This document shows positions 369-61,044 of a stretch of 64,000 nucleotides of DNA, piece after piece. The DNA is taken from NCBI GenBank assembly GCA_023380305.1, contig JAMCQZ010000005.1:14902-78901 (forward strand). The letters run 5' to 3'. The position numbers and the translations under genes were made by a program. Source of the DNA: Patescibacteria group bacterium (GTDB lineage: Bacteria; Patescibacteriota; Minisyncoccia; UBA6257; Colwellbacteraceae). Each line of letters begins with the position of its first letter. Within the stretch, counting starts at the first letter, position 1. Under the pieces are notes generated by a model. The model ran no database searches. It had not been told where the DNA came from and was given only the letters and a program-made list of their open reading frames with translations.

Positions 369-1772
369 TCAGCCTTTGATGACGGCTACCGGCTTCATCC
401 TCGCGATTTTCGCGGCGATTCCGGACCGGCTGATAACATCAACCACCTGGTCGACATCCTTATAGGCTTCGGGCGCTTCTTCCGCAAGTCCGGAAATCGA
501 ACCGGCGTTTATGGAGACCCCTTCGGCCGAAAGCTTCTGTTTTAATTCGCCGCCACGGATTTTTCTTCGCGCTTCGGTCCGGGACATCCTGCGACCGGCG
601 CCATGGCAGCTCGAACCGAAACTCTCTTTCATGGCGGCGCTTTCACCCATAAGAAGATAAGACCTTGTCCCCATGCTCCCAGGGACGAGAACCGGCTGGC
701 CGGGGAAAGACCTTGTCGCACCTTTCCGATGGATCACCAGTTTTTTATTTGCTCCGGAGACGGCATATTCCTCGATCTTGGCGATGTTGTGCGCCACGTC
801 GTAAAGAAGCTCCAGTTCCCCGGCTCCGTCGCCCAGGATCCCCCTCCAGGCCCGTCTGACTTCCCAGGATATGAGTTCACGGTTTCCCCAGGCGAAATTG
901 GCGGCGCCGGCCATCGCCTGGAAATAATTCCGGCCCTCATCCGAATCGAACGGCACGCAGGCCAGCTCCCTGTCTTTCAAAAAGATGCCGTGCCTGGGCA
1001 TGGCCCTCATCATCTCCCTGATGTAATCGGTAGCCACCTGGTGACCAAGTCCGCGTGAACCCGTATGTATTAAAATAACGACCTGGCCCGGGAACAGTCC
1101 GAATTTGTCAGCCGCGTCCTTATCAAAAATTTCCTCGATCGTTTCCACCTCCACAAAATGGTTCCCGGCGCCGATCGTGCCCAATTGGTCGCGACCACGG
1201 TCCTTGGCGCGGACAGAAACCATCCGCGGATCGGCTCCGGCCAGACATCCCTGCTCTTCGCAATTTTTAAGATCTGCCGGATCGCCGTATCCGATTTCCG
1301 TCATCCGGCCGGCCCCCCTCCTCAAAACTTCATCCAATTCCGTATCGGTCAATTTCAACCGTCCGGCTTGGCCGACTCCCGATGGAATCTCCCGATATAA
1401 AGCCCTCCCCAGTTCCGGAATAACGGACCGGATCGCGGAGACATCGATATTAGAACGCAGAAGCCTCACTCCGCAGTTGATGTCGTAACCGATGCCGCCG
1501 GGGGAAATAATCCCCTCTTTGAGGTCAAAGGCCGCCACCCCGCCTACCGGAAACCCGTAACCCTCGTGGATGTCGGGCATGGCGATCGCATAATCGACGA
1601 TTCCCGGGAGGCCAGCGACGTTTACAAGCTGATCCAAGGAACGATCGCCGATGATCTCATCGAGCATTTCTTCTGTCGCATAGACTCGCGCCGGGACCCT
1701 CATATCCGAGCGATAGGTTTTCGGTATCTCCCAAAGCCAATCATTTATTCTTCGCAAAGCCGATCTTTCCAT
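369..1772 (-). CDS. rtcB: RNA-splicing/repair ligase RtcB
   Basis: The 467-aa protein has the typical RtcB length and family-wide similarity, including the GYDINCG and GAGNHF...HTGSRGLGHQ stretches and the C-terminal CHGAGR metal/GMP-histidine region. Confidence 0.9.
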   Translation of the reverse strand: MERSALRRINDWLWEIPKTYRSDMRVPARVYATEEMLDEIIGDRSLDQLVNVAGLPGIVDYAIAMPDIHEGYGFPVGGVAAFDLKEGIISPGGIGYDINCGVRLLRSNIDVSAIRSVIPELGRALYREIPSGVGQAGRLKLTDTELDEVLRRGAGRMTEIGYGDPADLKNCEEQGCLAGADPRMVSVRAKDRGRDQLGTIGAGNHFVEVETIEEIFDKDAADKFGLFPGQVVILIHTGSRGLGHQVATDYIREMMRAMPRHGIFLKDRELACVPFDSDEGRNYFQAMAGAANFAWGNRELISWEVRRAWRGILGDGAGELELLYDVAHNIAKIEEYAVSGANKKLVIHRKGATRSFPGQPVLVPGSMGTRSYLLMGESAAMKESFGSSCHGAGRRMSRTEARRKIRGGELKQKLSAEGVSINAGSISGLAEEAPEAYKDVDQVVDVISRSGIAAKIARMKPVAVIKG

Positions 1773-1775
1773 GGA

Positions 1776-2225
1776 TTAGATATCAAAAATTATGGTTGTC
1801 GCGAGAACCCCGTTTTCATTCTCAACGATATCGGCTTCGTGATAAGTGACGGCTTTAATGTCCCGTTCAAACCGGACTGCCGGACGCGCTTTTAAAATCG
1901 CTCGCATTCCGGTCGGCGAAAGCTTTTCAAACTCGATGTCGCGGTAAAACTCGAAATTTTTTTCCATGCCGAAAAGGACTTCATTCAAGAAGTCGACAAG
2001 CAGCGCCGTCCGGTCGGCGGCTGATAATTTTATTTTCCGGTTGGTCTCTTTAAGATCGTCCGATTCCCGCGGGCCGGCGATAAAAACCATTCCTTTCAGA
2101 GCGTCCCTAAACAATTCTTCCAGATCTTTCCCCTCGACAGACAACCGGATATCGGCTGTATGTCCCAAGATCCTGTAGGGCATCCCGTGTCTCCAGTATA
2201 ACAAAAAACTTGCCGGAACTGCCAA
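1776..2225 (-). CDS. Archease, the RtcB activator
   Basis: The 149-aa protein carries the N-terminal GHTADI motif characteristic of archease. It lies immediately upstream of rtcB and is co-oriented with a 3-nt gap. Confidence 0.8.
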   Translation of the reverse strand: MAVPASFLLYWRHGMPYRILGHTADIRLSVEGKDLEELFRDALKGMVFIAGPRESDDLKETNRKIKLSAADRTALLVDFLNEVLFGMEKNFEFYRDIEFEKLSPTGMRAILKARPAVRFERDIKAVTYHEADIVENENGVLATTIIFDI

Positions 2226-11667: not shown

Positions 11668-13497
11668 TTAGCCCTGGTCGAGCTTCTGCTTTTCCTCCCT
11701 TTCCGCCTTGCGGCGATCGTTTTCAGTCAGATATTTTTTCCTGATCCTCACGCTTTTCGGAGTGATCTCCACGAGCTCATCGTCATGAATATAATCCAGG
11801 GCGTCTTCCAGGGTGAGCTTCAAGGGAACCTCGAGCTGATCCTGCAACCCCTCGTTCTTGGCGCGGAAATTAGTGAGTTCCCTCTGCCGGCAGACGTTCA
11901 CCAGTTCGTCCCGGGATTTGGCGTTTTCGCCGATAACCATGCCTTCATAGACCTCGACCCCCGCTCCCATGAAAAGTTTTCCCCTTCCCTGGGCGCTCAC
12001 CAAACCGTAATTGTTGGTGGTGCCGGTTTCGGTCGTGATGATCGAACCGTGGGGATTTTCCGGAAGATCCCCTTTATAAGGTTCGTAACCGGAAAAAAGG
12101 GTGTTCATGATACCCAACCCCTTGGTGTTCGTCATAAATTCGTTCCTGACGCCGATGAGGCCCCTTGTCGGGATTTCAAAATCCATTTTGGTCGTATGGT
12201 TATCGACACCCATGTCTTTCATCTTTCCGAGACGCTTTCCCATCATCTCGATGACCACTCCTGCAAATTCCTCAGGGACCTCGACTGAGACAAGCTCGAT
12301 CGGTTCGGTAAGTCCGGCTTCGCTTTCTTTAAAAATAACCTGGGGTTTGGAAACTTCGAGCTCGTATCCCTCGCGCCGCATTTTTTCGATAAGAATGGCA
12401 AGGTGCAGTTCGCCCCGACCGGAAACGATCCAACGATCGGTTTTATCCGTGTCCTCCACCTTCAAAGCGACATCTGTTTCAAGCTCCTTCGTCAGCCTTT
12501 CCTTGATATTTCGCGAAGTGGTGTACTCCCCTTCCAGGCCAGCAAAGGGCGAAGTATTCACTCCAAAAGTCATCTTGATAGTCGGCTCGTCGATATGGAT
12601 GACGGCTAGAGCTTTCGGATTTTCCAGGGCGGCGATGGTCTCGCCGATCGAGATTTCCGGAATGCCGGAAACGGCGACGATCTCTCCAGCGTCGGCTTCG
12701 GGAACGTCGATCCGGTTAAGGCCGTCAAAAAGCATAACATTCCCAATCTGGGCTTTTTTGATTTCGCCTCGGCGGTTGATATGGCTGACCCACATGCCTT
12801 TTTTCAAGACGCCGGAATAAAGCCGGCCGACAGCGATGCGGCCGCGATAATTGTCGTATTGAAGGTTGACCGTAAGCATCTGGAGCGGCTCGTTTTTTTC
12901 CGCCTTGGGAGCAGGGATGTATTCCATAATCGCCTCGAAGAGAGGTTCGACGTTTTTCATGACGCTCAAATCCGGCTCGGTCCCGGCTTTGCCAGCGACC
13001 GCCGAAGCGTAAATCACGGGGAAATCGATCTGTTCGTCGGTCGCTCCGAGCTCGATGAAAAGATCGTAGGTGGCATTCAGCGCCCAATTTGACCTCGCGT
13101 CCGGCTTGTCTATCTTATTGATGACGACGATGATCTTGTGTCCAGCCTCGATCGCCTTCCGCAAAACGAACTTGGTTTGCGGCATCGGACCCTCTTTGGC
13201 GTCGATCAATAAAATGGCGCCATCGACCATCCTCATGATGCGTTCCACCTCCCCGCCGAAATCGGCGTGTCCGGGAGTATCCACGATGTTGATCTTCGCC
13301 TCTTTGTACCTGATCGAGGCGTTTTTGGAAAAAATGGTGATGCCCCTTTCCCGCTCGAGTTCGTTCGAATCCATGATGAGATCCGTCGGGTTGTCGGTTT
13401 TAATCTTGAAGTTTTCGGATTGCTTTAATAAGGCATCGACCAAAGTGGTCTTGCCGTGATCAACGTGAGCAATAATGGCGATGTTTCTTAAATCCAT
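11668..13497 (-). CDS. typA: Translational GTPase TypA/BipA
   Basis: 609 aa with AHVDHGKTTL, DTPGHADF and NKIDK motifs, and similarity to BipA along the whole length. Confidence 0.9.
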   Translation of the reverse strand: MDLRNIAIIAHVDHGKTTLVDALLKQSENFKIKTDNPTDLIMDSNELERERGITIFSKNASIRYKEAKINIVDTPGHADFGGEVERIMRMVDGAILLIDAKEGPMPQTKFVLRKAIEAGHKIIVVINKIDKPDARSNWALNATYDLFIELGATDEQIDFPVIYASAVAGKAGTEPDLSVMKNVEPLFEAIMEYIPAPKAEKNEPLQMLTVNLQYDNYRGRIAVGRLYSGVLKKGMWVSHINRRGEIKKAQIGNVMLFDGLNRIDVPEADAGEIVAVSGIPEISIGETIAALENPKALAVIHIDEPTIKMTFGVNTSPFAGLEGEYTTSRNIKERLTKELETDVALKVEDTDKTDRWIVSGRGELHLAILIEKMRREGYELEVSKPQVIFKESEAGLTEPIELVSVEVPEEFAGVVIEMMGKRLGKMKDMGVDNHTTKMDFEIPTRGLIGVRNEFMTNTKGLGIMNTLFSGYEPYKGDLPENPHGSIITTETGTTNNYGLVSAQGRGKLFMGAGVEVYEGMVIGENAKSRDELVNVCRQRELTNFRAKNEGLQDQLEVPLKLTLEDALDYIHDDELVEITPKSVRIRKKYLTENDRRKAEREEKQKLDQG

Positions 13498-13715: not shown

Positions 13716-14624
13716 CTAAACCTCAAGATATTTTCGGATGACGATGACGCTCGAGATGACGCCGATGCCGACTCCAAAAAGAAGGTTGTATCCCAGGAGT
13801 TTAAAGAACGATCCCATAAAGAATCCCCAAAGGCTCATCCCCGGGATGAAGACGGCCACATAGGGCGAAGCCGCGTAGATGAAAGGCGCCGACAAGATCA
13901 TGGCGAGAAGGACGGCGATGATCCCGTAGATGACGCCGACGATAATGTACGGTCCCCTGATAAAAGCGTTCGAAGCGCCGACCAGACGCATGATGCCGAT
14001 TTCCTCCTTATTGGAATAAATGGCAAGCAGAATAGTGTTGAAAGAAATGATGATGGCGACAATGGCAAAAGCCAGGGTGAGCACCGCGGCCGTCCGGCGA
14101 CCGAGGCTCAAAATCTTGGCGAGCCGGTCGATAACCACTTGGTTTTGGCTGTAACTCACTTCTTGGATAACGCTTTTCGAAGAGTCGTTCTCAAGGAAGG
14201 AAGCGATAAGCGAATATTGGTTCGGATTTTTAGCTTTGATGTTCAAGGAAGCGCGCAAAGGATTTTCTTCAAGTTCGCCGATCGCCTGGGAAATAGTCGG
14301 ATCGTCGGCGTGCCGCTCTTTGAAAAGCTCCAGGGCCTCGTCTTTGGAGATATAATCCACCGACTTTACCTCGGATAACGTAAGCAGGGCCTCTTTCAGT
14401 TTCAATATCTCATCTTCCGGAGCGTTCGAAACGAAATAAACGCTGATGTCTATCTTGTCCTGGACGGCGTTGATGGCCTGCTTGCCGATCTCGCCGAAAA
14501 TAACCATCCCCTGGAAGACGACAACCGCGAGAAGGAGCACGAGGATGGTGGCGAAAGAAACCAGGTTGTTCCTCCAGAAATTTTGAAAGCCGTATTTTAT
14601 GATGCGAGCAAGAGTGGTGAACAT
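13716..14624 (-). CDS. ftsX: Cell-division ABC permease FtsX
   Basis: It has four transmembrane helices with a large periplasmic loop and lies directly downstream of ftsE. Confidence 0.8.
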   Translation of the reverse strand: MFTTLARIIKYGFQNFWRNNLVSFATILVLLLAVVVFQGMVIFGEIGKQAINAVQDKIDISVYFVSNAPEDEILKLKEALLTLSEVKSVDYISKDEALELFKERHADDPTISQAIGELEENPLRASLNIKAKNPNQYSLIASFLENDSSKSVIQEVSYSQNQVVIDRLAKILSLGRRTAAVLTLAFAIVAIIISFNTILLAIYSNKEEIGIMRLVGASNAFIRGPYIIVGVIYGIIAVLLAMILSAPFIYAASPYVAVFIPGMSLWGFFMGSFFKLLGYNLLFGVGIGVISSVIVIRKYLEV

Positions 14625-14640
14625 TTGAAATATTCTGAAA

Positions 14641-15321
14641 TTAAGTAAGGATGTATTTCCCTTTGTCTTCGTCGCGGATGATCATACCGTCGTCCAGGCT
14701 GATCACCCGACGCTCGAGCTGGTTGACGATGTCTTTGTTATGGGTGGCGAGAAGCACCGTGGTGCCGAGCTCGTTTATTTTAAGAAGAAGGTTGATGATG
14801 CCCCAGGTGTTTACCGGATCAAGGTTGCCGGTCGGTTCGTCGGCGATGATGACATCCGGCTGGTTAACCATCGCCCGAGCGATGGCCACCCTTTGGCGCT
14901 CGCCGCCGGAAAGCTCGTGAACGTAGTTGCTCATCTTCTTGCCGAGGCCGACAAGCTCGAGGGCTTGGGGCGCAGCTTCCTCGATATCCTCTTCGGACCG
15001 GCCGGCCACTTCCATGGCAAAAACCACGTTCTCGTACGCGGTTTTTCTCGGCAACAATTTGAAATCCTGGAAAATAATGCCCATATGCCGCCTCACCGCA
15101 GGCAGCTCCTGGCTTTGAAGCTTGTTGATTTCGTAGGGCCCGAAAACGATCCTGCCCTTGTCCGGTTTGTCTTCGCCAATCAAAAGCCTGACCAAAGTCG
15201 ATTTGCCGGCTCCGGAACGACCAACCAAAGAGACGAATTCTTTCGGCTCTATCTTGAAACTGACATCTCTCAAGACCTCATGGTGATTGTAGGTCTTTGA
15301 AACATTGCTGAAGGTAATCAC
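14641..15321 (-). CDS. ftsE: Cell-division ABC ATPase FtsE
   Basis: Motifs GRSGAGKST, LSGGERQR and IIADEPTGNLD, with a length of about 226 aa. Confidence 0.85.
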   Translation of the reverse strand: MITFSNVSKTYNHHEVLRDVSFKIEPKEFVSLVGRSGAGKSTLVRLLIGEDKPDKGRIVFGPYEINKLQSQELPAVRRHMGIIFQDFKLLPRKTAYENVVFAMEVAGRSEEDIEEAAPQALELVGLGKKMSNYVHELSGGERQRVAIARAMVNQPDVIIADEPTGNLDPVNTWGIINLLLKINELGTTVLLATHNKDIVNQLERRVISLDDGMIIRDEDKGKYILT

Positions 15322-15326
15322 TTTTT

Positions 15327-16046
15327 TTAGCTTTGACTTAATTTTAACTCGGCTTCGATAAACGTATCAAGATCGCCCTCGAGCACTTCGTCCGCCCGTC
15401 TTGACTCCGCCTTCGTCCTGTGATCCTTGACCAATTTGTACGGATGAAGAGTATAGGACCGGATTTGTCTGCTCCACTCGGGGACAACCTTGACCCGCAA
15501 GTTGTCGAGAGTGGTTTCCCGACGATCTTCCATTAATTTGGCCAATTTAGATTTTAAAAGAATCAAAGCCCGTTCTTTGTTTTGAACCTGGGAGCGCTCG
15601 GCTTGAGAAACGGCCACGAGTCCGGTCGGCAGATGGACCAACCGCACGGCGGTCTCCACTTTGTTGACGTTCTGACCGCCGGGACCGGAAGAACGGAAAA
15701 ACTCCGTCTTTAAATCGCTTTCCGGAATTCTTATTTTGTCCGCTTCGAATTTTTTAAGCTCAGGTAAGACTTCGACGAGCGCGAAAGAAGTGTGCCTCAA
15801 TTTTTTGGCGTCGTAGGGAGAAATGCGCACCAGCCGGTGCACTCCGGACTCGTTTTTCAACGTGTTGTAAGCTCCCGATCCCTCGATCTCGATGACGTTG
15901 TCGTGCAGCTCCCTCGACTTCCAGCCGCGTCTTTTGACGTAGCCTTCATACATCTTGATGAGCATCCGCGCCCAATCCTTGGCGTCGTCTCCTCCGACTC
16001 CAGGAAGAGCGGAAATGGTGATTGTCTGGTTTGGTAATGAATCCAT
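15327..16046 (-). CDS. prfB: RF2-type peptide chain release factor lacking domain 1 (domains 2-4 only)
   Basis: The 239-aa protein aligns to RF2 from about residue 126 onward. The SPF tripeptide-anticodon motif appears as SPY within GVHRLVRISPYDAKKLRHTSFALVEV. GGQ is at SGPGGQNVNKVETAVRL and the C-terminal SWSRQIRSY-like domain 4 is present. The tRNA-Thr gene lies 26 nt upstream, which leaves no room for a domain-1 exon or frameshift segment. Confidence 0.75.
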   Translation of the reverse strand: MDSLPNQTITISALPGVGGDDAKDWARMLIKMYEGYVKRRGWKSRELHDNVIEIEGSGAYNTLKNESGVHRLVRISPYDAKKLRHTSFALVEVLPELKKFEADKIRIPESDLKTEFFRSSGPGGQNVNKVETAVRLVHLPTGLVAVSQAERSQVQNKERALILLKSKLAKLMEDRRETTLDNLRVKVVPEWSRQIRSYTLHPYKLVKDHRTKAESRRADEVLEGDLDTFIEAELKLSQS

Positions 16047-16071
16047 GATAAAACGGTTATTCTGCCCTCTG

Positions 16072-16143
16072 AGCCGAAGGTGAGATTTGAACTCACGACC
16101 TTTGCTTTACGAAAGCACTGCTCTACCACTGAGCTACTCCGGC
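16072..16143 (-). tRNA. tRNA-Thr(CGU)
   Basis: A hand-folded cloverleaf: acceptor GCCGGAG/CTTCGGC, D-arm GCTC-AGTGGTA-GAGC, anticodon loop TTCGTAA (U33, anticodon CGU, A37), T-arm GTGAG-TTCAAAT-CTCAC, and discriminator U. Confidence 0.8.
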
Positions 16144-16219
16144 TCGGAAGGAGGAATAACGGATAAAATCGCTTTAATTAATTCCAATATAGAGTAATAT
16201 AAATGTATTATAGCATCAA

Positions 16220-33865: not shown

Positions 33866-35014
33866 TTACCCCAAAAATTGCATTAAAAGGGCTATCAAAG
33901 AACTGCGCGTCGACATGCAGATTAGAGCGGCTAAAAGCATATAGGGAGCAAAGGGGAAAGTTTTATAAATCTGTACTGTTATTTCCGGCTCTCCCGTGGG
34001 TATGGCGGCCAACGCCGTCACCTCGGCAGCGCTCAGCCCTTCCGGACCCCACGATCCCGAATTATCGCCCTGGTTAACGGCTGATAATTTTTCCTTGATA
34101 AGTGGTTCGGCAGAGGGACAAGGCATATCGCCCCTTTTAAGACACCTTAGCGGAACCGTCGAAATTTCTCTAGTCTGTATATAAAAAGCGATAGCCTGTT
34201 TGATAACCCTAAAGACAATCCACATAATCAATACCATCTGCACGAAGGAGAAGACTATCCCCCACTTGCCGAGCCAACCATAGTAGCCGATATAAACCAA
34301 GGGAATGGCGACGATCATCTTATCCAACCACTTGTTTTTTTTCAGATAATCCATCGCTTTTCTGAACAAAATCGCCATAGAGAAAAAAATGAATAGCGGG
34401 TTGGAAAATAGGGACTCAAATACTGTACCACTAAACGCTTTGGAAATTATTTGAAAAAAGGCGAACATCATAAAAAACATCATCAAAGAACTACCCAACT
34501 CTTTCAGTCGAAAAATGCGGGTCTTTCTTTTCTCCTCCAGAGATGATTTTTCATCAACGCGATGGTCAATCCGACGGAATCTTGTAAAATCTTGAAAATA
34601 AATAATCCCCGCTTTTAATACCAAAATGGCCAAAAGGGGAATAAAAAGATTGATCAATAGATTTATCGAAGGAAAAAATTTTATAAAACTGGCCGAATAA
34701 AATTTAAGGGGCATCAAAGCGGCGTAAACCATAAACAGCTTGGCGTCCCCTGCGGACCATAATTTTTTATCCCATAAAACGTAACCTACGACAATCGCCA
34801 AAGCGGCGTTTGATAAAACTTCAGACACATAATGGCTATTTTCCGGAAGACCGATAAAAAAATAGTTGTACAAAAAGACGAATATATAAGAAATCATCGC
34901 GCAACCTAATCCCGCGATAATTATCTTGTTAGGAATTCTGTTGTATCTGATATCCGTGTAAGCGCAGACGAGGCCTATTAAAAACATCAGCGCTATAAAA
35001 AACGCGTCTATCAT
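33866..35014 (-). CDS. A24-family (prepilin-peptidase-like) polytopic aspartic membrane protease homolog
   Basis: The first Asp motif is in YTDIRYNRIPNKIII and the second is in WSAGDAKLFMVYAAL, which resembles the GGDxKL motif. There are more than 8 transmembrane helices and a C-terminal extension. The gene overlaps rSAM-1 by 4 nt. Confidence 0.55.
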   Translation of the reverse strand: MIDAFFIALMFLIGLVCAYTDIRYNRIPNKIIIAGLGCAMISYIFVFLYNYFFIGLPENSHYVSEVLSNAALAIVVGYVLWDKKLWSAGDAKLFMVYAALMPLKFYSASFIKFFPSINLLINLFIPLLAILVLKAGIIYFQDFTRFRRIDHRVDEKSSLEEKRKTRIFRLKELGSSLMMFFMMFAFFQIISKAFSGTVFESLFSNPLFIFFSMAILFRKAMDYLKKNKWLDKMIVAIPLVYIGYYGWLGKWGIVFSFVQMVLIMWIVFRVIKQAIAFYIQTREISTVPLRCLKRGDMPCPSAEPLIKEKLSAVNQGDNSGSWGPEGLSAAEVTALAAIPTGEPEITVQIYKTFPFAPYMLLAALICMSTRSSLIALLMQFLG

Positions 35015-35958
35015 GATTTGGATGTGTTTTTGACGGCGACGATCGGATGATAAATAAAATCTTGGCCTCGGCTCATTTTAAAAGCGCCCATCGACGACCT
35101 GATCGGCTCAAACTCTTTATCTCCGATAAGTCGAAGATAATCATTATGAATCCCCATGCAATATTTCTTGTATAAACAGGTGGAACATTTTTTAGGAAAA
35201 GAGACTTCTGTAGCCGGTAAGGTCCGCCAGGCATGTGGCCAAAGATCCGACGGCAAGGCGCAAAGAGGAAAATGGTACAATCGAAGATCGTTGATTTTGA
35301 CGGCCCACTTGCGGATGCTTTTGGCCACCTCGGACTCGACATCCTGATAGGTTATCCCCACCCGCTTCAGATGATCCCCACACTGGCCCTCTAATTCATG
35401 AAAAATTAACACGACCGCGTTCAATCCCCTGAAACTCTTATAGATAAATTCCAATAAACCATCAAGTTTTTTGTAATTTTGTTTAATAATGACCGTCCTT
35501 GTCTCCACAAAATGACTATCGTTTCTGAAGCGCAAAATATTTTTCAATCCTTGAACAGCCTGGGGAAAACCACCTTTAACGCCGGTTATCTCGTCGTACA
35601 GTGCCGGCGTGTGACCGTGCATGGCGATTTCCAACTTTAAGTTTTCGACGGCTAAAACTTTTTTAGCAAAATCATCGTATGCGAACATCCGGCCGTTGGA
35701 AACGCAAACGATTTCGTTATCCGGAAATTCTTTCCTAATCCAATTTAAAAGTTGGACAAACTGCGGAACAATCGTCGGTTCTCCGCCGGTCAAATTAATT
35801 GATTCTCTGCTTTTAAAAAGTCGATCCGCGCAGTCTTCGATGCGCTTGATTAATTGATTATAACCGTAAGCGCGGCTATCTCGCGGATTATTGAACTCGG
35901 CGGGATTGGAGCACATTACGCACCGGTTGTTGCATCGATTCGTTATGCAAAACTCCAT
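35011..35958 (-). CDS. Radical SAM enzyme with a C-terminal SPASM/twitch-like Cys cluster (rSAM-1)
   Basis: CITNRCNNRCVMC matches the CxxxCxxC radical-SAM motif. The C-terminal Cys cluster is CALPSD...CSTCLYKKYCMG. Confidence 0.8.
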   Translation of the reverse strand: MEFCITNRCNNRCVMCSNPAEFNNPRDSRAYGYNQLIKRIEDCADRLFKSRESINLTGGEPTIVPQFVQLLNWIRKEFPDNEIVCVSNGRMFAYDDFAKKVLAVENLKLEIAMHGHTPALYDEITGVKGGFPQAVQGLKNILRFRNDSHFVETRTVIIKQNYKKLDGLLEFIYKSFRGLNAVVLIFHELEGQCGDHLKRVGITYQDVESEVAKSIRKWAVKINDLRLYHFPLCALPSDLWPHAWRTLPATEVSFPKKCSTCLYKKYCMGIHNDYLRLIGDKEFEPIRSSMGAFKMSRGQDFIYHPIVAVKNTSKS

Positions 35959-35970
35959 CTTACCGGATGA

Positions 35971-36213
35971 TTAAAAATTTACTTCTGAGGCGTCCTTATA
36001 TTCGGCTATCTCGGCCAAAGTGACTTCATAACGACGGGCTTGATCTAAAAGTTCTTCCCGAGCCTTGCGTTTGGCTTCCGCTATGTTGTCCGCCCACACC
36101 CAACCGACCACCTCGAAATGCTCTTTGCTTCTATAAGTGACGATATAAGTTTTTTCTCCTTTGTTTTTATTTTTTTTAGCGTTCATGCTTACGGTTTGTA
36201 TTATAAGCATCAA
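35971..36213 (-). CDS. Small hypothetical protein nested between rSAM-1 and rSAM-2
   Basis: The 80-aa ORF has a probable start at MNAKKNKNK near 36186. Confidence 0.35.
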   Translation of the reverse strand: MMLIIQTVSMNAKKNKNKGEKTYIVTYRSKEHFEVVGWVWADNIAEAKRKAREELLDQARRYEVTLAEIAEYKDASEVNF

Positions 36214-37180
36214 GCATCTTTTTTTGCTCGACGCTGATTTTTTTAACGGGCGACAATTCTTGATCGCCGTAATGCTTTAGATATTCGACCCATATACCCT
36301 CGCAGGCATTATACAATGCGCACCCGCCACAACGCAAAGTCTTTTTCCGAGCCCACTTTTTCCTCGATTCCAAAGCATCAAAATCAACAAAATCTTGGGC
36401 GATGTGTTCGGTATTGAAGGTTTTTGTTTCGTGCAACTCGCTGATTCGATTCAAATAATCAGGAAAATGGCAAAGCGGCACGTATCTTATATCCCAATGG
36501 AGCACATCCTTTTTCCCCCCGAGATCGAGGCATTTTCGGATATAAGGCGCCGCTTCGGATATTTTGGGAACCAGTTCCTCGAAATAACGTTTGGCTCCGC
36601 CTTCGTTGCAATCGACAAAAATGAATTCGGAATCAACGATGCCGTGGTTTAAAATAAATTTCCCTATCTGGGGCAGATAACGATAATTCTGTTTGACAAT
36701 AGTCGTGTTCGAACCGAAATGAAAATTAATTTGTTTCCGCTTAATAATTTCTTGAAGATTCGTCAACCCTTTTTTGAGCTGTTCGAAACTCCCCGGGGCT
36801 TGTGTCAGATAATCATGAATCTCCGGCTTGTGCCCGTGAATAGAAAAAACGACGCTGTTAAGACCGGCTTCCACAAGTTTTTTGGCGACCGATTTATAGG
36901 AAAACATCCGGCCGTTGGTCGCGATCATAATCGTATGAAAACCGATTTTTTTCGCAAAACCGACGATGTCGGGAAAGTCCGGTCTCATCGTCGTTTCCCC
37001 GCCGATGAGTTCGAGATAAACCGTGCCCCTCTTTTTGGCGGCGAATATTTCTTTTTTGATTTCATGCGTCGGTCTGACGGGCATACTCCTTTTGTCCTGT
37101 TCCATGCAAAACCGGCAATGATTATTGCAGGCATAACCCACGAAGATGACGCTTTTGGAGATTTTGCTTTCTTTCCTCAT
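36176..37180 (-). CDS. Radical SAM/SPASM-like enzyme (rSAM-2)
   Basis: GYACNNHCRFC, and C-terminal CGGCALYNACEGIW. The track ORF extends to 37342, and the start was trimmed to MRKESK to limit overlap with the upstream gene. Confidence 0.75.
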   Translation of the reverse strand: MRKESKISKSVIFVGYACNNHCRFCMEQDKRSMPVRPTHEIKKEIFAAKKRGTVYLELIGGETTMRPDFPDIVGFAKKIGFHTIMIATNGRMFSYKSVAKKLVEAGLNSVVFSIHGHKPEIHDYLTQAPGSFEQLKKGLTNLQEIIKRKQINFHFGSNTTIVKQNYRYLPQIGKFILNHGIVDSEFIFVDCNEGGAKRYFEELVPKISEAAPYIRKCLDLGGKKDVLHWDIRYVPLCHFPDYLNRISELHETKTFNTEHIAQDFVDFDALESRKKWARKKTLRCGGCALYNACEGIWVEYLKHYGDQELSPVKKISVEQKKMLDAYNTNRKHER

Positions 37181-37220
37181 TTTGATTCTATAAAAAGCCT
37201 GGGTGTCGACTATATTCCGG

Positions 37221-38117
37221 TCATATCTGCAATCCTTTCTCGCCGTATAAATCAAGGTAGTCCTGTAATATGCCATCGCATGAAGATTTGTAGGGACACT
37301 CGGCACACAAATTAATGCGTACTTTATTGGAGTTCTTTTCAAGACATGGAAAAAACAAATCTCTGGCGGTTTTCGGCAAGCTGCACGGTAAAAATTCGAC
37401 TAGAAGGAACTTAACCGGCGATTTTTGATATTTGTTTTTTTGGAGTACTCCGGCGACGTAACGGCTGAGAGTCGGCATATGACAGACGACACCTTTATCG
37501 CGGGATCGCTTACTCAAAGGCGCCACCCATAAAATGTTTATTTCCTTGACCCCCAAACGAATCAATAAATCGAGCGTCAACTCAAGGGTCGGATAATTAT
37601 GACGCGTGAGCGGAACATTAACGAGGATGCTCAAACCTGGTTTTCTCAAAGCCATCAAATTTTTGATCCCCTGAACCGTTTGCTTGAAACTGCCCGGAAC
37701 TTGAGTCATCAAATCATGCGTTTTCTCGTCGGCGCTGTTGAAAGAAATCCCCACCTGGTTGACGCCGCAAGCGATCATTCTTTTTGCAAAAGCCGGATAA
37801 GAAAGCAGGCGGCCGTTGGTGGCGACGCTCACCTGCCTGAATTTCAAAGTTTTTACAAAAGCCAGAAGCTTAAAGAAATCCGGCCGCAAAGTCGGCTCCC
37901 TACCCATTAGGCTTATAAAATCGTAATGGGCCCTGACTTGTTTAACCTCATCCTTTAACTCCTCCAAGCTTTTGTTCCGGAGATTTTTCAGATATTCATC
38001 GGCTTCGCTGCAAAATGAACAGTTATTGTTACAGGCGTAACCGCCGTAAATGTACGGACTGACATATTCGTGGCCTCGATCCGGCCACCTTTTTTTATCA
38101 TTCAAGCGTTTAGCCAT
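37221..38117 (-). CDS. Radical SAM/SPASM-like enzyme (rSAM-3)
   Basis: GGYACNNNCSFC, and C-terminal CAECPYKSSCDGI. The track ORF extends to 38162; the MAKRLNDKK start at 38117 leaves a 2-nt gap after the upstream stop. Confidence 0.75.
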   Translation of the reverse strand: MAKRLNDKKRWPDRGHEYVSPYIYGGYACNNNCSFCSEADEYLKNLRNKSLEELKDEVKQVRAHYDFISLMGREPTLRPDFFKLLAFVKTLKFRQVSVATNGRLLSYPAFAKRMIACGVNQVGISFNSADEKTHDLMTQVPGSFKQTVQGIKNLMALRKPGLSILVNVPLTRHNYPTLELTLDLLIRLGVKEINILWVAPLSKRSRDKGVVCHMPTLSRYVAGVLQKNKYQKSPVKFLLVEFLPCSLPKTARDLFFPCLEKNSNKVRINLCAECPYKSSCDGILQDYLDLYGEKGLQI

Positions 38118-39081
38118 GGCGTTTTTTCGGACGAATCTTATTAACGATCTTTCGAGGATCATCGTGTCGCGGCTTAAAATCAGAAACTCCGTAAAGGACT
38201 TTCAGGCGCGGGTAAAACCCTCCGCAGATCTCGTTCATCGAACACTCGACGCATTGAGGAGCCTTGTTCGCCACCGTGTGATCGGGTTTTTTAAAATCGA
38301 GTATCCTCTGGCCGCTATAATAATCATCCAATATTTTCAATCCCGTGAATCGAAAGTTGGTCGACACGGCATGCGTTTCGAATCCTTTCACGTGGCATAA
38401 AGGCACTATTTCTGAAATATCAAAATTAATTTTATATTCTTCGCACTTACGACAAGCCTTCCGGAGATAAGGACCGATGTCGGCCATTCTGGGAATAATC
38501 CATTTGTTCTCCCAAGCCCAACCGTCCGGCACGACGATGCTCAAATTGAGATAGAATCGCCCGCTTCGAATGTCCAAATCATGAACAAAATCGATCATCG
38601 CCGGCATGTCTTTATAATTGACCGAGTTGATCACGTGAATCAAGTGAAGTTCAAATCCCAACTGGCTAGCGCTTTTAATATTGTCTACGATAGTCTTGGA
38701 CCCGTAATTAATGCCTCGCAACTTATTGCTGATTTCCTCTCTATGACTATGAAAGGCAAAATTGATGATATCTAAACCCGCCTTCCGCCAAGCCATAAGC
38801 TCTTTAACACCGAACATCGTGCCGTTGGTTTGGATCTCTACGATAAATCCCCGCTTCTTCGCCTCCATGATGATACCGGATAATTTTGGATGGAGCGTCG
38901 GTTCTCCTCCGGTTAAAATAACGCGATGGGTTATATTCTCTCTTTTAAGCCTGTCGAGCTCTTCCTTGATTTTTGAAAACGGATAATCATCCGACTCGAA
39001 GCCGACCGGAGGACGGTTGCAAAAAACGCACTTCTGATTGCATCTTGAATTTATCTGCAGATAAGTATGGGTTTCCGCCAT
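38110..39081 (-). CDS. Radical SAM/SPASM-like enzyme (rSAM-4)
   Basis: NSRCNQKCVFC, and C-terminal CVECSMNEICGGFY. Confidence 0.8.
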   Translation of the reverse strand: MAETHTYLQINSRCNQKCVFCNRPPVGFESDDYPFSKIKEELDRLKRENITHRVILTGGEPTLHPKLSGIIMEAKKRGFIVEIQTNGTMFGVKELMAWRKAGLDIINFAFHSHREEISNKLRGINYGSKTIVDNIKSASQLGFELHLIHVINSVNYKDMPAMIDFVHDLDIRSGRFYLNLSIVVPDGWAWENKWIIPRMADIGPYLRKACRKCEEYKINFDISEIVPLCHVKGFETHAVSTNFRFTGLKILDDYYSGQRILDFKKPDHTVANKAPQCVECSMNEICGGFYPRLKVLYGVSDFKPRHDDPRKIVNKIRPKKRHG

Positions 39082-40299
39082 TTATGGATTATCGTTTTTT
39101 ACGATCACGGCCATTATTTTCTTTTCTCGCAACGAATGCGCTAACGGCTGCAAATATCGCTCTATATAATCCGTTAATATAATCGCATTTAATTTGCCGT
39201 CCGCCAATCTTGATATTATCGCCTCGACATCGCCCGCATTTCTCAAACTGGCCCTGATTTTATTGCCCTTGAAGCTACGGGCGGTAACCGGCTTTAATCC
39301 GTCAAAACCGAATAATTCAATATACTCTCTCCAAAAACCCTGGCAGTAACCGGAAAGGATGCATCGCAAACAGTCCCTGTGTTTGTTTTTATAGAAATCT
39401 ACCGCTTCTTTTGACGACCATTCAAATTCATGAAAAACATCTTGACCGACCGCGCCAGCTACTTTTTCTTCTCCAAAAGACAATGATTGGAGAACCTTCT
39501 CTTCAAACCCCGGAATAATGCATAAAGGAAACTGGCCGCAAGCGGCTATACTCGTTTCATAATGATTTTGATTCAAAAAAATCAGAGCTTTCGTCAAAAA
39601 CGGTTTTAACAAACTAAACGGCACATAGATCCATTTATTTAAAACGGCATTTCCTTGAGGAAATGGGTAAGCTAAGGTGACGCTATGCACCGCCGGGAAA
39701 TTAGCGGAGATAAATGAACAAAACCTGGGCAAATAGCGAAAATTATCATTGGTAATCACGTGGTATACCGACATTCGGCGCTTGCTTTTAACGATAGCTT
39801 GCATGCCCTTGAACGTTTTCGAGTATGCTCCCGATAATCCGGTGATACGGTCGGAAATAACAGCGTTGTCGGCGTGCAACGAGACGCTAAAGACCAACTT
39901 GTGTTTAGTGTCCGCCTTAAAAACTTCTCCGGCGTAATGTTTATCGGCCATTCTGACAGCGTTGGTTAAAACCGAAATCGTCCTCAACCCTTTTTGCTTT
40001 TCCGCATAATCAATAATCTCGGGCAGATCATCGCGCAAGGTCGGCTCTCCGCCGGTTAACATAATTTCCTCTCCTCCGACTTCTGAAAAATCCTTAATAA
40101 CCCTTTTAACTTCTTTAAGATCCATCAAAGGAAAATTATGCTCGTTGCCTTTGATAAGGCAAAAATTGCAATTCTCATTGCATTGAGCGCCCAGGTTAAT
40201 ATAGAGGACTTCCGGAACGGCATCACCAGATCGTTCGAAAAACGTCTTTTTCTTGCCGGCGATCACTTTTTCAATTTTTTGAAGGGTGTTTTTTTTCAT
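39082..40299 (-). CDS. Radical SAM/SPASM-like enzyme with a C-terminal extension (rSAM-5)
   Basis: GAQCNENCNFC, then CLRCILSGYCQGFW, plus about 70 extra C-terminal residues. Confidence 0.8.
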   Translation of the reverse strand: MKKNTLQKIEKVIAGKKKTFFERSGDAVPEVLYINLGAQCNENCNFCLIKGNEHNFPLMDLKEVKRVIKDFSEVGGEEIMLTGGEPTLRDDLPEIIDYAEKQKGLRTISVLTNAVRMADKHYAGEVFKADTKHKLVFSVSLHADNAVISDRITGLSGAYSKTFKGMQAIVKSKRRMSVYHVITNDNFRYLPRFCSFISANFPAVHSVTLAYPFPQGNAVLNKWIYVPFSLLKPFLTKALIFLNQNHYETSIAACGQFPLCIIPGFEEKVLQSLSFGEEKVAGAVGQDVFHEFEWSSKEAVDFYKNKHRDCLRCILSGYCQGFWREYIELFGFDGLKPVTARSFKGNKIRASLRNAGDVEAIISRLADGKLNAIILTDYIERYLQPLAHSLREKKIMAVIVKNDNP

Positions 40300-42264: not shown

Positions 42265-43180
42265 GTCGGCGCGTTTTGACGACCGGTCGGAATTCTCCCC
42301 ATCCGAAAATATCTGGATATTCTCTCCACGGTCCTTCGCATATCTTATTATGCTTGCATTTAATACACAAAGAGCCCTTGGCTTTCCCGCGTTCGCGCCG
42401 ATACGTGGCATAATCTTTAATATCGATATTGGCGTCGAACACATGGGCGTCCGGTATAATCTGTTCGGCGATATAAGTCTCGTAACCGGCCATCAAACAG
42501 TATGGTATAGCTTCGGTCATGCAATTAACGCCCGCTTTCTTGCCTATATCTAAAGCTTCCTTGACGTACGGCATCACATCGGTCACTCGCGGAACGATTT
42601 CTTCTATCTGGCACAGATCGTGGGCGATCAAATTGTTGATGTGGATAAAAGCGCATTGGAATTGGTCAACGCCGAGCCGCACTAAAAGCCTGGCGATGTT
42701 CGGTAAATCTTTATAATTAATTTTGGTGATGACCGTATTCGTCATCACCCGCTTGCGAAGTCCAACAAGGTTTTTGATGCCCTGGACGGTCTGATCGAAG
42801 CTTCCTGGAGAACGCGTCAATTTGTCATGGATAGCCGCGGTCGAACCATGCAATGCCGGGCTGAAATCATCGGCTCCGGCGCGAATTATTTCTTTACAAT
42901 AATCAAGATAGGCGAACACCCGGCCGTTTGTCTGGATCTGAATGGGTTTATAACCCAACTTGTGGGCATAGGCCACTGCCTCCAAAAGCAACTCTTTTCT
43001 CAAGGTTGGCTCTCCTCCGGTGAAGACGACCTCGTCGCATCCTTCTTTCCAGCTCTGTTTCAAAATGGACTTTATCTCCTCGATCGGACGATTCGGATAA
43101 TGATATCTTTTATCTCCCTGAACGCAGAAAACACAATGATTATTGCACTGAAAACCCATTTTTAAATCCAACCTTTTCAT
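42245..43180 (-). CDS. Radical SAM/SPASM-like enzyme (rSAM-7)
   Basis: GFQCNNHCVFC, and C-terminal CIKCKHNKICEGPW. Confidence 0.8.
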   Translation of the reverse strand: MKRLDLKMGFQCNNHCVFCVQGDKRYHYPNRPIEEIKSILKQSWKEGCDEVVFTGGEPTLRKELLLEAVAYAHKLGYKPIQIQTNGRVFAYLDYCKEIIRAGADDFSPALHGSTAAIHDKLTRSPGSFDQTVQGIKNLVGLRKRVMTNTVITKINYKDLPNIARLLVRLGVDQFQCAFIHINNLIAHDLCQIEEIVPRVTDVMPYVKEALDIGKKAGVNCMTEAIPYCLMAGYETYIAEQIIPDAHVFDANIDIKDYATYRRERGKAKGSLCIKCKHNKICEGPWREYPDIFGWGEFRPVVKTRRHAKNDK

Positions 43181-45147
43181 AACGCTGTCTTATTAATCGA
43201 TTTTATCTTTGAAATTTGACAAAAATCCCGATAAATCTCTTCTCTATCCGCATACGCCTTAAAATTTTTGCGGCCCGTTTTTCCCGCCGCGAAGCGCACT
43301 TTGTCGTCCGCAACGCGATACAGTTCAAGACATTCCTTATAGGTTTGGGGCAATTCTAATTCCGCACAAAAGGACGCGTAGTTTTCCGGCCACAATCCTT
43401 TGGGAAGAGGCTCTGTTATTTTAAAATAGACCCGGTTTTTGCGTAAGGCCCTTAAAAATTGAAGGATTTTCTTGCCATTTTGAGGATTGATATCTTTAAG
43501 TTTTAGTTGAAAATTCAAAAGCACCGCCGTCAGTTCCTCTCGGCTGTTTTTATATTCGATTATCTTTTTTTTCAAGTCCTGAAGACGGTCTAATCGGTCG
43601 ACGATAATATAGGGATTTTTGGCAAGGTCTTCGCCGTTTTTACTCATTCGCAGTTCAAAATCTGTATACAACATAGAATAGAATAGTTTGCTCCCTCTGT
43701 ACGCCAAACAGGGTTTTTTATTAATCAAATAACGCTCGGCCAGATAGGCGAAGGCGTAAACAAGACCGTTTTTTTGATCGGCGTCGCAGCTGCGTTTCTC
43801 GGGGTCAATGCTTCCGTATTTCATGCCCAAGGCATACAAACAAATCGGCGAACAGGGAGACACTAAAGAGCACGAATCGCAGTGATTTATCGCAAACTGG
43901 TGATCAATCACATCTACCAATCGGTTAAGTTTCTTGAAATCCATTTTAATTCGTTTCGTCCCGCGATCATAACGCCCGATAAGAAAATCCTTCATAAAAG
44001 GATACTGTGTAAAATCCCAAGAGCTCGTATGCCGTGAACAGGACGACACATAGCCGTCAGGGTCAACAATAAAATAATTTTTGGTATAGATGCCGCAAGT
44101 CAACGTGTTACCCAGGGCACCGAAATTAGCCCCTCGTACGTTCATCCGCAACTCATCTTGAAGCTCCATAAACTTTTGAGCCTCTTTGAAATAAATCGTG
44201 GGGCGCTGGAAAGCTTGATAGGCTATCGATCCTTTCTTATCATCGGCCGTCTTATAAAGCTGTTCCGCAATGCCGCTGAAATTAAGCGAGCTGATATCCA
44301 ACGTCCTTACGCCCAATTGCCAAAAATAATTAATCACCCTCAAATCATTTTCATAAAATTCGTCAACAGCGGTGGTTCTCACCCTGAAGGGCGCCTTTTT
44401 TTTGACAAAATATTTGATTGTCTTTTCGACAAATTTACTACTCGCCCTACCGTTAGCCAACGGCCTATATTTGTCTTGGATAAAAGCCGGCCCATCGCAG
44501 GAAATCTGCGGAAAACCGGCATTATTAATCAGCCAATCCGCCACCGACCGAGAGATCACTCCGTTGGTCGAAATGGGCTGGATGACTACTTTGGGGATTC
44601 TTTTTTTTGCATAATCCAATATTTTTTTCAACAATTCAAACTCCAGGGTGTTCTCCCCTCCTCCTATCAACTTAAGGTTTAATTCGCCGCCGCAATATTT
44701 GGAGACGAAATCGATAGCAGCTTTCGCTATCGAAAACGGCATTATCTTGTTCTTTTCCCTCCGACCCGCTGACGCGTAACAATAACGGCACCTCAAATTG
44801 CAGTTCAGAGTTAAGTTCAATCCCAAATCTCTAAAATAATACGGCGGCTTATATATCCGCGGTCGATCGGTTTTAGGAACAATAATATTGAGATCTAAAA
44901 GTAGCTGGGGAATGGGTTCTGTCTCTGAAAAATGCCTGATATATTTGTCATAGTCTTCTAATGAAAATCTAAATATCTTGGCCAAGACAAAAGAAAAGAT
45001 GATAATTCCATCTCTCAAGGTCCATAAAGGAGTCAGATTCGGATTAATCTCAAACCTAATATTTTGAGGCAAGTTGAGTATCCTCCCGCCCTCTGCGCTT
45101 TCTACATGATAGAAACTTTTCTTTAAATCTATAATTTTTACCAACAT
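43177..45147 (-). CDS. Large radical SAM/SPASM enzyme (rSAM-8, 656 aa) with N- and C-terminal extensions; candidate HxsB/HxsC-type maturase
   Basis: LTLNCNLRCRYCYASAG, a SPASM-like cluster CGIY...CSRH...CDSCSLVSPCSPIC, and an extra ~100-aa N-terminal domain that could be a peptide-binding region. It lies immediately downstream of the precursor. Confidence 0.8.
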   Translation of the reverse strand: MLVKIIDLKKSFYHVESAEGGRILNLPQNIRFEINPNLTPLWTLRDGIIIFSFVLAKIFRFSLEDYDKYIRHFSETEPIPQLLLDLNIIVPKTDRPRIYKPPYYFRDLGLNLTLNCNLRCRYCYASAGRREKNKIMPFSIAKAAIDFVSKYCGGELNLKLIGGGENTLEFELLKKILDYAKKRIPKVVIQPISTNGVISRSVADWLINNAGFPQISCDGPAFIQDKYRPLANGRASSKFVEKTIKYFVKKKAPFRVRTTAVDEFYENDLRVINYFWQLGVRTLDISSLNFSGIAEQLYKTADDKKGSIAYQAFQRPTIYFKEAQKFMELQDELRMNVRGANFGALGNTLTCGIYTKNYFIVDPDGYVSSCSRHTSSWDFTQYPFMKDFLIGRYDRGTKRIKMDFKKLNRLVDVIDHQFAINHCDSCSLVSPCSPICLYALGMKYGSIDPEKRSCDADQKNGLVYAFAYLAERYLINKKPCLAYRGSKLFYSMLYTDFELRMSKNGEDLAKNPYIIVDRLDRLQDLKKKIIEYKNSREELTAVLLNFQLKLKDINPQNGKKILQFLRALRKNRVYFKITEPLPKGLWPENYASFCAELELPQTYKECLELYRVADDKVRFAAGKTGRKNFKAYADREEIYRDFCQISKIKSINKTAL

Positions 45148-46000: not shown

Positions 46001-47464
46001 CTATTGAATGTTCAGCCACCGATAAAAGACTCCCGCAGCCTTTTTATTTTTCAGTTTTTTAAACAGATAATCGAACGTCGCCGAATGCAGTTTACACCAA
46101 TCGTTCGACGGTCCGGCCGGAAATAGATCTCCGTAGATCATGTAGTTCATTACCGGACAAATACCGCAATAGGGCTTGTAAGCGCAATAATCACACTGGG
46201 TGTTATCGAGCGTCGAACACGCGAGTAAAGTCTTCGTTTTTTGGCTGTTAATGATCTTCTGGTAATATTTGGCGGACGTCATGCCTTTCTTCTGAAGATC
46301 GGCCAGATCGCCCACGGCAAAAGTATCGTCGCCGCACATTCTGCCCTCGTCGCAGGAATAAATTTTGCCATCATAATTATACAATATTTGCCCGGTAACG
46401 GCTCCGCATGGAGACCTGAGTTCGGTAAAACCCGGGTCGACTTCCTGCATGATTTTCTGCAGCATGATCCGGCTTCCGCGCTCGTAAAATTGCTTTCCTT
46501 GAAGGTTTAAATCGATGATATAATCGAGAGATTTTTTCCAAAATTTCAAAAATTCTTCTACAGAATAACCGATGCGGTTTTTCGCTTCGCCAGCCGCTCC
46601 AAGATAACTGAGCCTTCTCAGATGGACCCCTTCGAATCCCCATTTCAAATATTCATCCACGATCTCCTTGGGATATTTCAAAGATTCTTTTGAAATGGTC
46701 ACGAGAGCGGACAAATGATAGATATCCCTGCCGGACGCCTGTCTCTCGCCCTCTATTTTTTTAATCTTATCGATCCAATCGGAAGTCACTTTATAGCTGC
46801 TTTTGCCGGGAAACGGCCGGTTGAGATTGTGAACTTCTTCCGGGCCGTCCAAGGAAGTGCAAACCGAAACCCGATTGTCGGCCAAAAAATCGAATTTTTC
46901 CTTGTCCATCAAGCTCAAGTTGGTAACGAGACTGATAAGCAAGATTTTCCGGATCTTTTCGTTCTTTTTGCGGCTGTATTCGACGATGAATTTGACCACG
47001 GGCCAGTTTACTAAAGGCTCCCCTCCCTGAAATTCAATGGTGATAACCTGGCTCGGTGATTCAAAAATCATATCCACCGCCCGCTTGGCGGTTTTAAGAT
47101 TCATGTCGTAGCCTTTCGACGTCAAGTCCCGAGAGCTCGCCTGGCAATACACGCATTTATAATTGCACCTCAAGGTGGTAACGATAATATGCAAAGACGG
47201 CCCTTGAAACAGAAAAGCCGATCTATTTTGATATCGCGTGATTGATTTTGTTAAATCCCAATCGTCTTTTAAAAAACCCTTGGCCCTCAATTGGTCATAT
47301 AAATTGGTATCTGGCTTTATCTTCCCCCGAGTAAAACTGGAAAATTCGTCCGGGGACAAAAAAAGATGATGTCCTGTATCGTTGGTAATCAGATAATCTT
47401 TATCGATTTTTTTGAATCGAAAAAAATTCGGTTTATCGGGATTTAATTTTAATGGTTTGGGCAT
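46001..47464 (-). CDS. Radical SAM/SPASM enzyme (rSAM-9, 487 aa) with an N-terminal extension; candidate HxsB/HxsC-type maturase
   Basis: TTLRCNYKCVYC, and C-terminal CGAV...CDEGRMCGDD...CSTLDNTQCDYCAYKPYCGICP. Its stop is 6 nt upstream of the precursor start. Confidence 0.8.
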   Translation of the reverse strand: MPKPLKLNPDKPNFFRFKKIDKDYLITNDTGHHLFLSPDEFSSFTRGKIKPDTNLYDQLRAKGFLKDDWDLTKSITRYQNRSAFLFQGPSLHIIVTTLRCNYKCVYCQASSRDLTSKGYDMNLKTAKRAVDMIFESPSQVITIEFQGGEPLVNWPVVKFIVEYSRKKNEKIRKILLISLVTNLSLMDKEKFDFLADNRVSVCTSLDGPEEVHNLNRPFPGKSSYKVTSDWIDKIKKIEGERQASGRDIYHLSALVTISKESLKYPKEIVDEYLKWGFEGVHLRRLSYLGAAGEAKNRIGYSVEEFLKFWKKSLDYIIDLNLQGKQFYERGSRIMLQKIMQEVDPGFTELRSPCGAVTGQILYNYDGKIYSCDEGRMCGDDTFAVGDLADLQKKGMTSAKYYQKIINSQKTKTLLACSTLDNTQCDYCAYKPYCGICPVMNYMIYGDLFPAGPSNDWCKLHSATFDYLFKKLKNKKAAGVFYRWLNIQ

Positions 47465-60601: not shown

Positions 60602-61024
60602 CTATTTGATTTCGATACCCATCGATCGGGCGGTCCCAGCGATTATTTTTTCGGCGGCTTCGACGTCGTTCGCGTTCAAATCCACCATTTTCTTCTCGGC
60701 GATTTTGCGCAGATCCTCCTTGCTCACCGTTCCCACTTTATTTTTGTTCGGAACAGCCGAACCCTTCTCGATGCCGGCGGCCTTGCGGAGCAGATCCGAA
60801 GCCGGCGGAGTCTTTAACTTAAAAGTGAAGCTTCTGTCCTCGTAAACGGTGATTTCAGCCGGAATAATGTCGCTGCCCATATCCTTGGTGGCGTCGTTAA
60901 ACTGCTTGCAGAAATCCTGGATATTGATTCCGTGCTGTCCCAACGCCGGACCCACCGGAGGAGCCGGGTTAGCAGCGCCGGCCTTAATCTGAAGTTTTAA
61001 TATTGTTTTGATTGGTTTAGCCAT
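60602..61024 (-). CDS. rplK: 50S ribosomal protein L11
   Basis: [26 protein letters not shown]. Confidence 0.95.
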
Positions 61025-61044
61025 ATTAGCGAAAATATCTTAAA

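Follow-up and report, generated by a model that had tools for sequence, protein, structure and literature searches.

A probable natural release factor 2 without domain 1, encoded directly downstream of a tRNA-Thr gene in Paceibacteria (Parcubacteria)

Truncation experiments have led to the view that class-I release factors can do without domain 1, which is nevertheless retained nearly universally, and a programmed +1 frameshift site is a common, but not universal, feature of prfB, the gene for release factor 2 (RF2). Domain 1 touches the L11 N-terminal domain and RF3 (PMC3677378). Engineered release factors without the N-terminal domain kept stop recognition and peptide release and lost the interaction with RF3 alone, with a cost in growth rate, according to the summary of Mora et al. 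(2003) given in PMC1586002. Termination can be completed by release factors without RF3, and many lineages have no RF3 (PMC6742477). Two further groups of the superfamily are reduced in size: PrfH (RFH, TIGR03072), the partner of RtcB2, which has three domains, a GGQ motif and no domain 1 (PMC1586002), and ArfB/ICT1/C12orf65, which consist of the GGQ-bearing domain 3 and a C-terminal tail only and act independently of the codon; the tail of ArfB is basic, and the whole protein has about 140 residues. A full-text literature search gave no account, for CPR bacteria, of a natural RF2 that lacks domain 1.

The stretch of DNA analysed here (the window, 64,000 nucleotides) has a GC content of 49%, is about 91% coding, uses the standard code and belongs to a Patescibacteria/Parcubacteria-type genome. 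A short form of prfB lies on its minus strand (15327..16046; ATG at 16046, TAA at 15327-15329) and encodes a protein of 239 amino acid residues composed of domains 2, 3 and 4 only, in agreement with the initial annotation, which had described an RF2 homologue with SPY, GGQ and domain 4 and without domain 1. The Pfam PCRF profile is matched only over positions 101-194 of 194 and RF-1 (PF00472) over positions 4-116 of 116 (119.5 bits), while the NCBIfam prfB model (TIGR00020) gives 285.6 bits over positions 120-353 of 353; the missing part is domain 1 of RF2, the three-helix bundle that contacts L11 and RF3. The prfB score stays under the curated cutoff of 370 bits because a third of the protein is absent, and the rival NCBIfam models score lower (prfA 186 bits, PrfH 88.9 bits and ArfB 53.1 bits). 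Among PDB sequences the best matches came from B. subtilis RF2, aligned over residues 125-358 of its 362, from E. coli RF2, aligned over residues 134-363 of its 365, and from T. thermophilus RF2. Identity amounts to about 41% with E. coli RF2 (39% in the structural alignment to 1gqe) and to about 41% with B. subtilis RF2 in structural alignments to 9fy1/6szs. Modelled with AlphaFold2 on the basis of 43 short homologues (pLDDT 83.8, pTM 0.81), the protein resembled compact free RF2, with 1gqe as the best match (TM 0.79), followed by 2ihr (TM 0.72); this model and alignments A1 and A2 cover residues 2-239, and position numbers in them are those of the full protein minus one.

The decoding superdomain (domains 2/4) is complete in the short protein (GxGG..A.DW, SPY, RHTSF and W..QIRSY), and E. 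coli RF2 has counterparts in the alignment to SPY, RHTSF, GGQ and the switch-loop region W..QIRSY. S76-P77-Y78 (15813..15821, minus strand), the 'tripeptide anticodon' of the RF2 type SP[F/Y] and not of the RF1 type PxT, is aligned to E. coli SPF, and G123-G124-Q125 (15672..15680, minus strand), the catalytic GGQ of domain 3, is invariant in 43 short-form homologues. SPY had at first been considered unusual, a view that we do not share: the RF2 motif is written SP(F/Y) (PMC1586002), SPY is present in 73 of 122 aligned sequences, and both SPY and SPF are found in long (domain 1-containing) and short forms. Compared with canonical RF2 (TIGR00020), the short form therefore has in common domains 2-4, SP(F/Y), GGQ, RHTSF, W..QIRSY and an orthologous locus upstream of ftsE-ftsX, and differs in the absence of domain 1 (about 120 residues in E. 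coli) and of the +1 frameshift site CUU UGA C, as well as in a 10-residue deletion in domain 2. This deletion affects a domain-2 hairpin (residues 48-52, window positions around 15890-15905), relative to both E. coli (SEGEVAGIKS) and B. subtilis RF2, and is common to long and short Parcubacteria homologues, which places this trimming of the clade's RF2 before the loss of domain 1. Domain 1 of the long forms is itself only about 88 residues long, against about 120 in E. coli.

The initial annotation had also considered a PrfH-like ribosome rescue factor, which would be the partner of an RtcB/archease RNA-repair system. An archease-RtcB RNA-ligase operon is indeed encoded in the window (369..2183, minus strand; RtcB at 369-1772), and PrfH likewise has three domains with GGQ and no domain 1 (PMC1586002), but this architecture is a shared trait, insufficient for membership. 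PrfH is further characterized by a remodelled decoding region, by rescue of damaged or stalled ribosomes instead of stop reading and by translational coupling to rtcB, none of which is true of the short prfB. Its decoding loop is of the canonical RF2 type (SPY...RHTSF) and not the altered loop of PrfH, the TIGR03072 score of 88.9 bits is far from the cutoff of 166.65 bits, against 285.6 bits with the prfB model, and in the comparison with solved structures RF2 came out best, whereas PrfH chains aligned to the GGQ domain only (50-57 bits). In addition, prfH is always located directly downstream of its rtcB partner (PMC1586002), while here a sigma-70 family gene comes after the archease-RtcB operon, which has no prfH partner, the distance between RtcB and prfB is 13.5 kb, with a dozen genes of either strand in between, and the synteny around the short gene is that of prfB. 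We thus regard a PrfH-like function as highly improbable. Membership in the ArfB family was rejected as well: the NF006718 model, with its cutoff of 100 bits, reached 53.1 bits on 35 residues, and the resemblance is that of two reduced RF-1 superfamily members with GGQ, whereas domains 2 and 4 are present in full and the decoding superdomain is intact in the short prfB.

A tRNA-Thr(CGU) gene with CCA not encoded (16071/16072..16143, minus strand; ARAGORN; Rfam RF00005, 68.6 bits) precedes prfB on the same strand. Its 3' end is separated from the prfB ATG by a spacer of 24 nt (16047..16070, minus strand; 24-25 nt depending on the call of the tRNA end), so that the tRNA neighbour reported initially was confirmed, with a trivial correction of the reported distance of 26 nt. 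This spacer is too short to hold domain 1, a frameshift ORF or a terminator, and a search for a terminator-like site within it gave none. Its sole G-rich run, GAGGG, is separated from the ATG by about 18 nt, more than a standard Shine-Dalgarno site would allow. In the prfB frame a stop codon is found 20 codons upstream of the ATG, inside the tRNA gene, and no alternative start codon occurs as far as this stop, in line with the earlier view that no upstream start restores domain 1. Beyond the tRNA gene there are 76 nt before a divergent ABC-ATPase gene; this AT-rich divergent intergenic region (16144..16219) is the putative promoter region for tRNA-Thr-prfB-ftsEX, and a consensus scan of it gave no strong -35/-10 match upstream of the tRNA gene. 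On the other side, ftsE (14641..15321, minus strand; ABC ATPase, Pfam ABC_tran) begins 5 nt past the prfB stop and is followed by ftsX (13716..14624, minus strand; Pfam FtsX_ECD and FtsX, and synteny), both being conserved downstream neighbours, and by the gene for the translational GTPase TypA/BipA (11668..13497, minus strand; Pfam GTP_EFTU and BipA_C), at the end of the conserved block.

In the rest of the window, nusG and rplK (the latter encoding L11 with both domains) are followed by genes for a dCTP deaminase and a thymidylate kinase (60602-61599, minus strand), L11 with its N-terminal domain being still encoded at 60602-61024. The usual rplA-rplJ-rplL genes do not come after this nusG-rplK pair, L1 being away from its normal place. 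At least six radical-SAM genes (35011-35958, 36176-37342, 38110-39081, 39082-40299, 43177-45147 and 46001-47464) are found on one strand between 35011 and 47464 (minus strand), interspersed with ORFs without a Pfam match and adjoining an A24-type peptidase-like gene (33866-35014); this stretch may be a peptide-modification or cofactor cluster.

For comparison we took 82 related loci, each classified independently of its annotation: two metagenome loci and the 80 nearest ones in species-representative genomes, which include Colwell-, Harrison-, Lipton-, Jorgensen- and Kaiserbacteria along with further Paceibacterota. A locus was assigned to the short class if there was no in-frame room for domain 1 and no domain-1 HMM match in any frame within 3 kb. 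By this definition, 37 loci are short and 45 long (counts that include L002, L003 and L005), and the short form is present in about 35 of the 80 nearest species-level relatives, belonging to Colwell-, Harrison- and Jorgensenbacteria, among others (L078, which lies at a contig edge, is only tentatively counted among these). In at least 22 of the 45 loci with domain 1, CTT TGA C is present in the correct register, which identifies the family as bona fide prfB. The order tRNA-Thr(CGU)-prfB-ftsE-ftsX-typA is maintained around the short forms of L002 (a 241-residue orthologue, 84% identical) and L003/L004 (L003: 230 residues, 66% identical, on a 585-kb contig) and also around L005, whose product of 317 residues retains the N-terminal domain; the position of ftsE after prfB is kept in L001-L005. 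Given this synteny with relatives that retain domain 1, many of them with CTT TGA C, the gene in the window is most readily understood as the orthologous prfB with domain 1 deleted.

A tRNA-Thr(CGU) gene of the same orientation precedes prfB in 30 of the 37 short loci and in 35 of the 45 long ones (65 of 82). Domain 2 is 19-194 nt away from the tRNA in 19 short loci, and no long locus has less than 268 nt between the two. As the tRNA adjoins long and short prfB alike, it is likely to be the ancestral neighbour, domain 1 having been deleted from between the tRNA and domain 2. These data also bear on a possibility raised by the initial annotation, a truncation by an insertion at the 3' end of the tRNA gene, and more generally on a recent truncation or pseudogene caused by insertion or rearrangement at this site, or an assembly artefact. 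tRNA 3' ends are common integration sites and unrelated genes did insert between tRNA-Thr and prfB in some relatives; nevertheless, the same tRNA is already directly upstream of prfB in relatives that carry domain 1 (L005, L008, L014, L051 and others), and the short form is found again and again, in about 35 independent assemblies at species level that stem from many studies, has been in the databases since the groundwater (GW2011) genomes of 2015, labelled as RF2 or 'release factor-like', and shows strong purifying selection with all functional motifs invariant. A recent accident of this kind is extremely improbable.

In single-gene neighbour-joining trees, which are not robust, most short forms make up a single large clade, which adjoins a clade of long forms, and one or two groups of short forms stand apart from it, suggesting on these sequences one to three independent losses of domain 1. 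Proteins of 264-295 residues were tried as partial domain-1 deletions and dropped: in 23 loci the prfB frame opens part-way into domain 1, and 22 of these 23 carry the frameshift site CTT TGA C. Most likely, gene callers truncated full-length genes with a frameshift and so produced the intermediate lengths.

Two further features of the related loci were observed. In full-length prfB of related Paceibacteria, a hairpin with a conserved 6-bp stem and a 5-nt loop is located 3 nt upstream of CTT TGA C (for instance CTCGCC-GCTTA-GGCGAG and CCCGCC-GGTTA-GGCGGG; L013:2755-2800, L017:2689-2734 and L029:2563-2608 in alignment A3). Four of its pairs have compensatory double changes, and pairing is seen in 81% of the cells, compared with 29-54% after sliding of the partners. 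The 3' arm of the hairpin is the Shine-Dalgarno-like AGGCG(A/G)G, at the place of the E. coli AGGGGG stimulator, and the hairpin may be a structured stimulator or an element that masks the Shine-Dalgarno sequence. The second feature concerns the junction with the tRNA, which varies in both directions. In L003 (3925-4003), L008, L014, L040, L051, L052, L056, L075 and L085, with both long and short prfB among them, the 3' end of tRNA-Thr(CGU) is 0-6 nt from the prfB start, a spacing at which tRNA 3' processing would give an essentially leaderless mRNA, similar to 'tRNA punctuation'. In L019, L036, L042, L046, L057, L063, L066, L071 and L082, on the other hand, 0.4-1.9 kb of unrelated genes, different from genome to genome, stand between tRNA-Thr and prfB, suggesting repeated insertions just downstream of the tRNA gene.

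We looked for domain 1 at some distance from the short gene, too. A tblastn search of the 64-kb window with three long-form domain-1 sequences returned nothing, and an HMM built from 39 domain-1 sequences (38 long-form relatives and E. coli RF2) revealed no hidden domain 1 at the short forms in six frames of the window, the 85 loci and a further 10 kb. Between the tRNA and the short prfB of some relatives no domain-1 remnants were found either, the sequences there being unrelated inserted genes. With the 239-residue protein as query, tblastn against the window and all related loci detected no second RF2, RF1 or ArfB nearby, and no RF domain was found among the called genes of the 10 kb beyond the window start.

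These searches are relevant to the possibility that the short protein is an accessory or partial factor, either because a full-length prfB is encoded elsewhere and the short copy is a specialised paralogue, or because RF2 is split, with a separately encoded domain 1 that acts in trans. About 74 kb of the genome was read, domain 1 is a module that is flexible and separable (PMC1586002) and a low usage of TGA would tolerate a secondary factor, all of which leaves some space for such an arrangement. We consider it unlikely, since the short gene stands where prfB was ancestrally, at a locus that holds the frameshift-bearing gene in relatives, the domain-1 HMM was empty in six frames within 3 kb on either side of 37 short-form loci as well as in the window and 10 kb more, and the genes that some relatives have between the tRNA and the short prfB are unrelated insertions. 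Moreover, the 80 best genome matches came from 80 different assemblies, although a long copy passed on by vertical descent should show 60-69% identity, a value within the reported range. The short prfB is thus probably the only RF2 of the cell.

Conservation of the short forms is consistent with a working factor. Across 43 of them (down to 61% identity), 63 positions are invariant, including GGQ, SP and RHTSF, and every functional motif is covered. Between the window gene and L002 dN is 0.10 with dS saturated, and dN/dS between L002 and L003 is 0.11; judged from these comparisons, the short prfB is under strong purifying selection and is not decaying. The 56 genes of the window end in TAA, TAG and TGA in 33, 15 and 8 cases, respectively, RtcB being among the TGA-ended genes with a Pfam match that runs to its last residue, and TGA ends 14% of 229 genes in short-form loci. 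Since TGA is in use as a stop codon, a UGA-reading factor is required. TAA/TAG/TGA usage is 59/27/14% for the short-form loci and 46/35/18% for the long-form loci with the frameshift site, and this excess of TAG over TGA suggests that termination leans on RF1 clade-wide and not just where RF2 is short. TGA is the rarest stop codon, which fits a weak or scarce RF2, yet this is equally true of the long-form relatives.

Outside this clade, the architecture seems to be rare. A library of representatives at 50% identity contained 1,146 clusters matching at E ≤ 1e-30, and the best 150 of these 1,146 almost all align from their own residue 100-130 onwards; the exceptions in the best 150 are mostly miscalled starts or fragments, although P0156 (253 residues) may be a genuine independent short form. 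Five other candidates for a short RF2 were rejected, as they look like miscalled starts or fragments: in P0158, P0159 and P0257 the first residue is the internal Met of MFSGEYD/MLSGEAD, and a non-Met start just upstream of this motif is seen in P0190 and P0250. Some of these five sequences, which belong to other lineages, have garbled C-termini.

From domain content, motifs, orthologous synteny and clade-wide conservation, we conclude that the gene in the window is probably an orthologous prfB encoding a functional class-I RF2, whose domain 1 was deleted during evolution within Paceibacteria (Parcubacteria). Among the explanations offered initially, it is the natural minimal RF2 that the comparison upholds. 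The closest parallel is provided by the engineered N-truncated RF1 and RF2 of E. coli, which, as summarized in PMC1586002 from Mora et al. (2003), have the same deletion boundary and keep domains 2-4, so that codon-specific release is predicted to be kept and RF3 coupling lost in the short form; those truncations are laboratory constructs with a growth cost, whereas the short prfB is natural, fixed and conserved across a clade. Thermus has no RF3 (PMC6742477) and domain 1 is still present there, and therefore RF3 loss alone is not a sufficient explanation for the deletion, although it may have been permissive.

We propose that the short factor would bind to the A site at UAA and UGA, where domains 2/4 would read U-A/G-A via the tip of helix α5, SPY and the His of RHTSF; the switch loop would then open the factor, and GGQ would reach the peptidyl-transferase centre and hydrolyse peptidyl-tRNA. 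Departure would occur by spontaneous dissociation, with neither docking of domain 1 to the L11 stalk nor recycling assisted by RF3. As the frameshift ORF is absent, expression cannot follow the classical scheme and would take place without the usual +1 frameshift autoregulation. Given a 24-nt spacer with no terminator, the simplest reading is that prfB is co-transcribed with the tRNA gene, a tRNA-mRNA co-transcript being probable, and that the 5' end of the mRNA is made by tRNA 3' processing. Extending this to the clade is a more tentative step, which we favour on balance: a large clade of Paceibacteria would have a three-domain RF2 as its sole reader of UGA and UAA, with no L11-stalk docking or RF3 recycling, with a tRNA-Thr-prfB co-transcript in place of frameshift autoregulation and, in some species, with a near-leaderless mRNA.

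Annotation pipelines under-score the short forms ('release factor-like'), and such genomes can appear to be without RF2. As the resident prfB of a clade, the short form would show that nature, and not just test-tube truncation, can dispense with domain 1. Full-length prfB with the frameshift, full-length prfB without it and domain-1-less prfB form a ready-made comparative series, which may be used to ask what domain 1 contributes to RF3 coupling, stalk docking, fidelity and speed, how the minimal translation systems of CPR bacteria cope, and whether stop-codon usage tracks release factor architecture.
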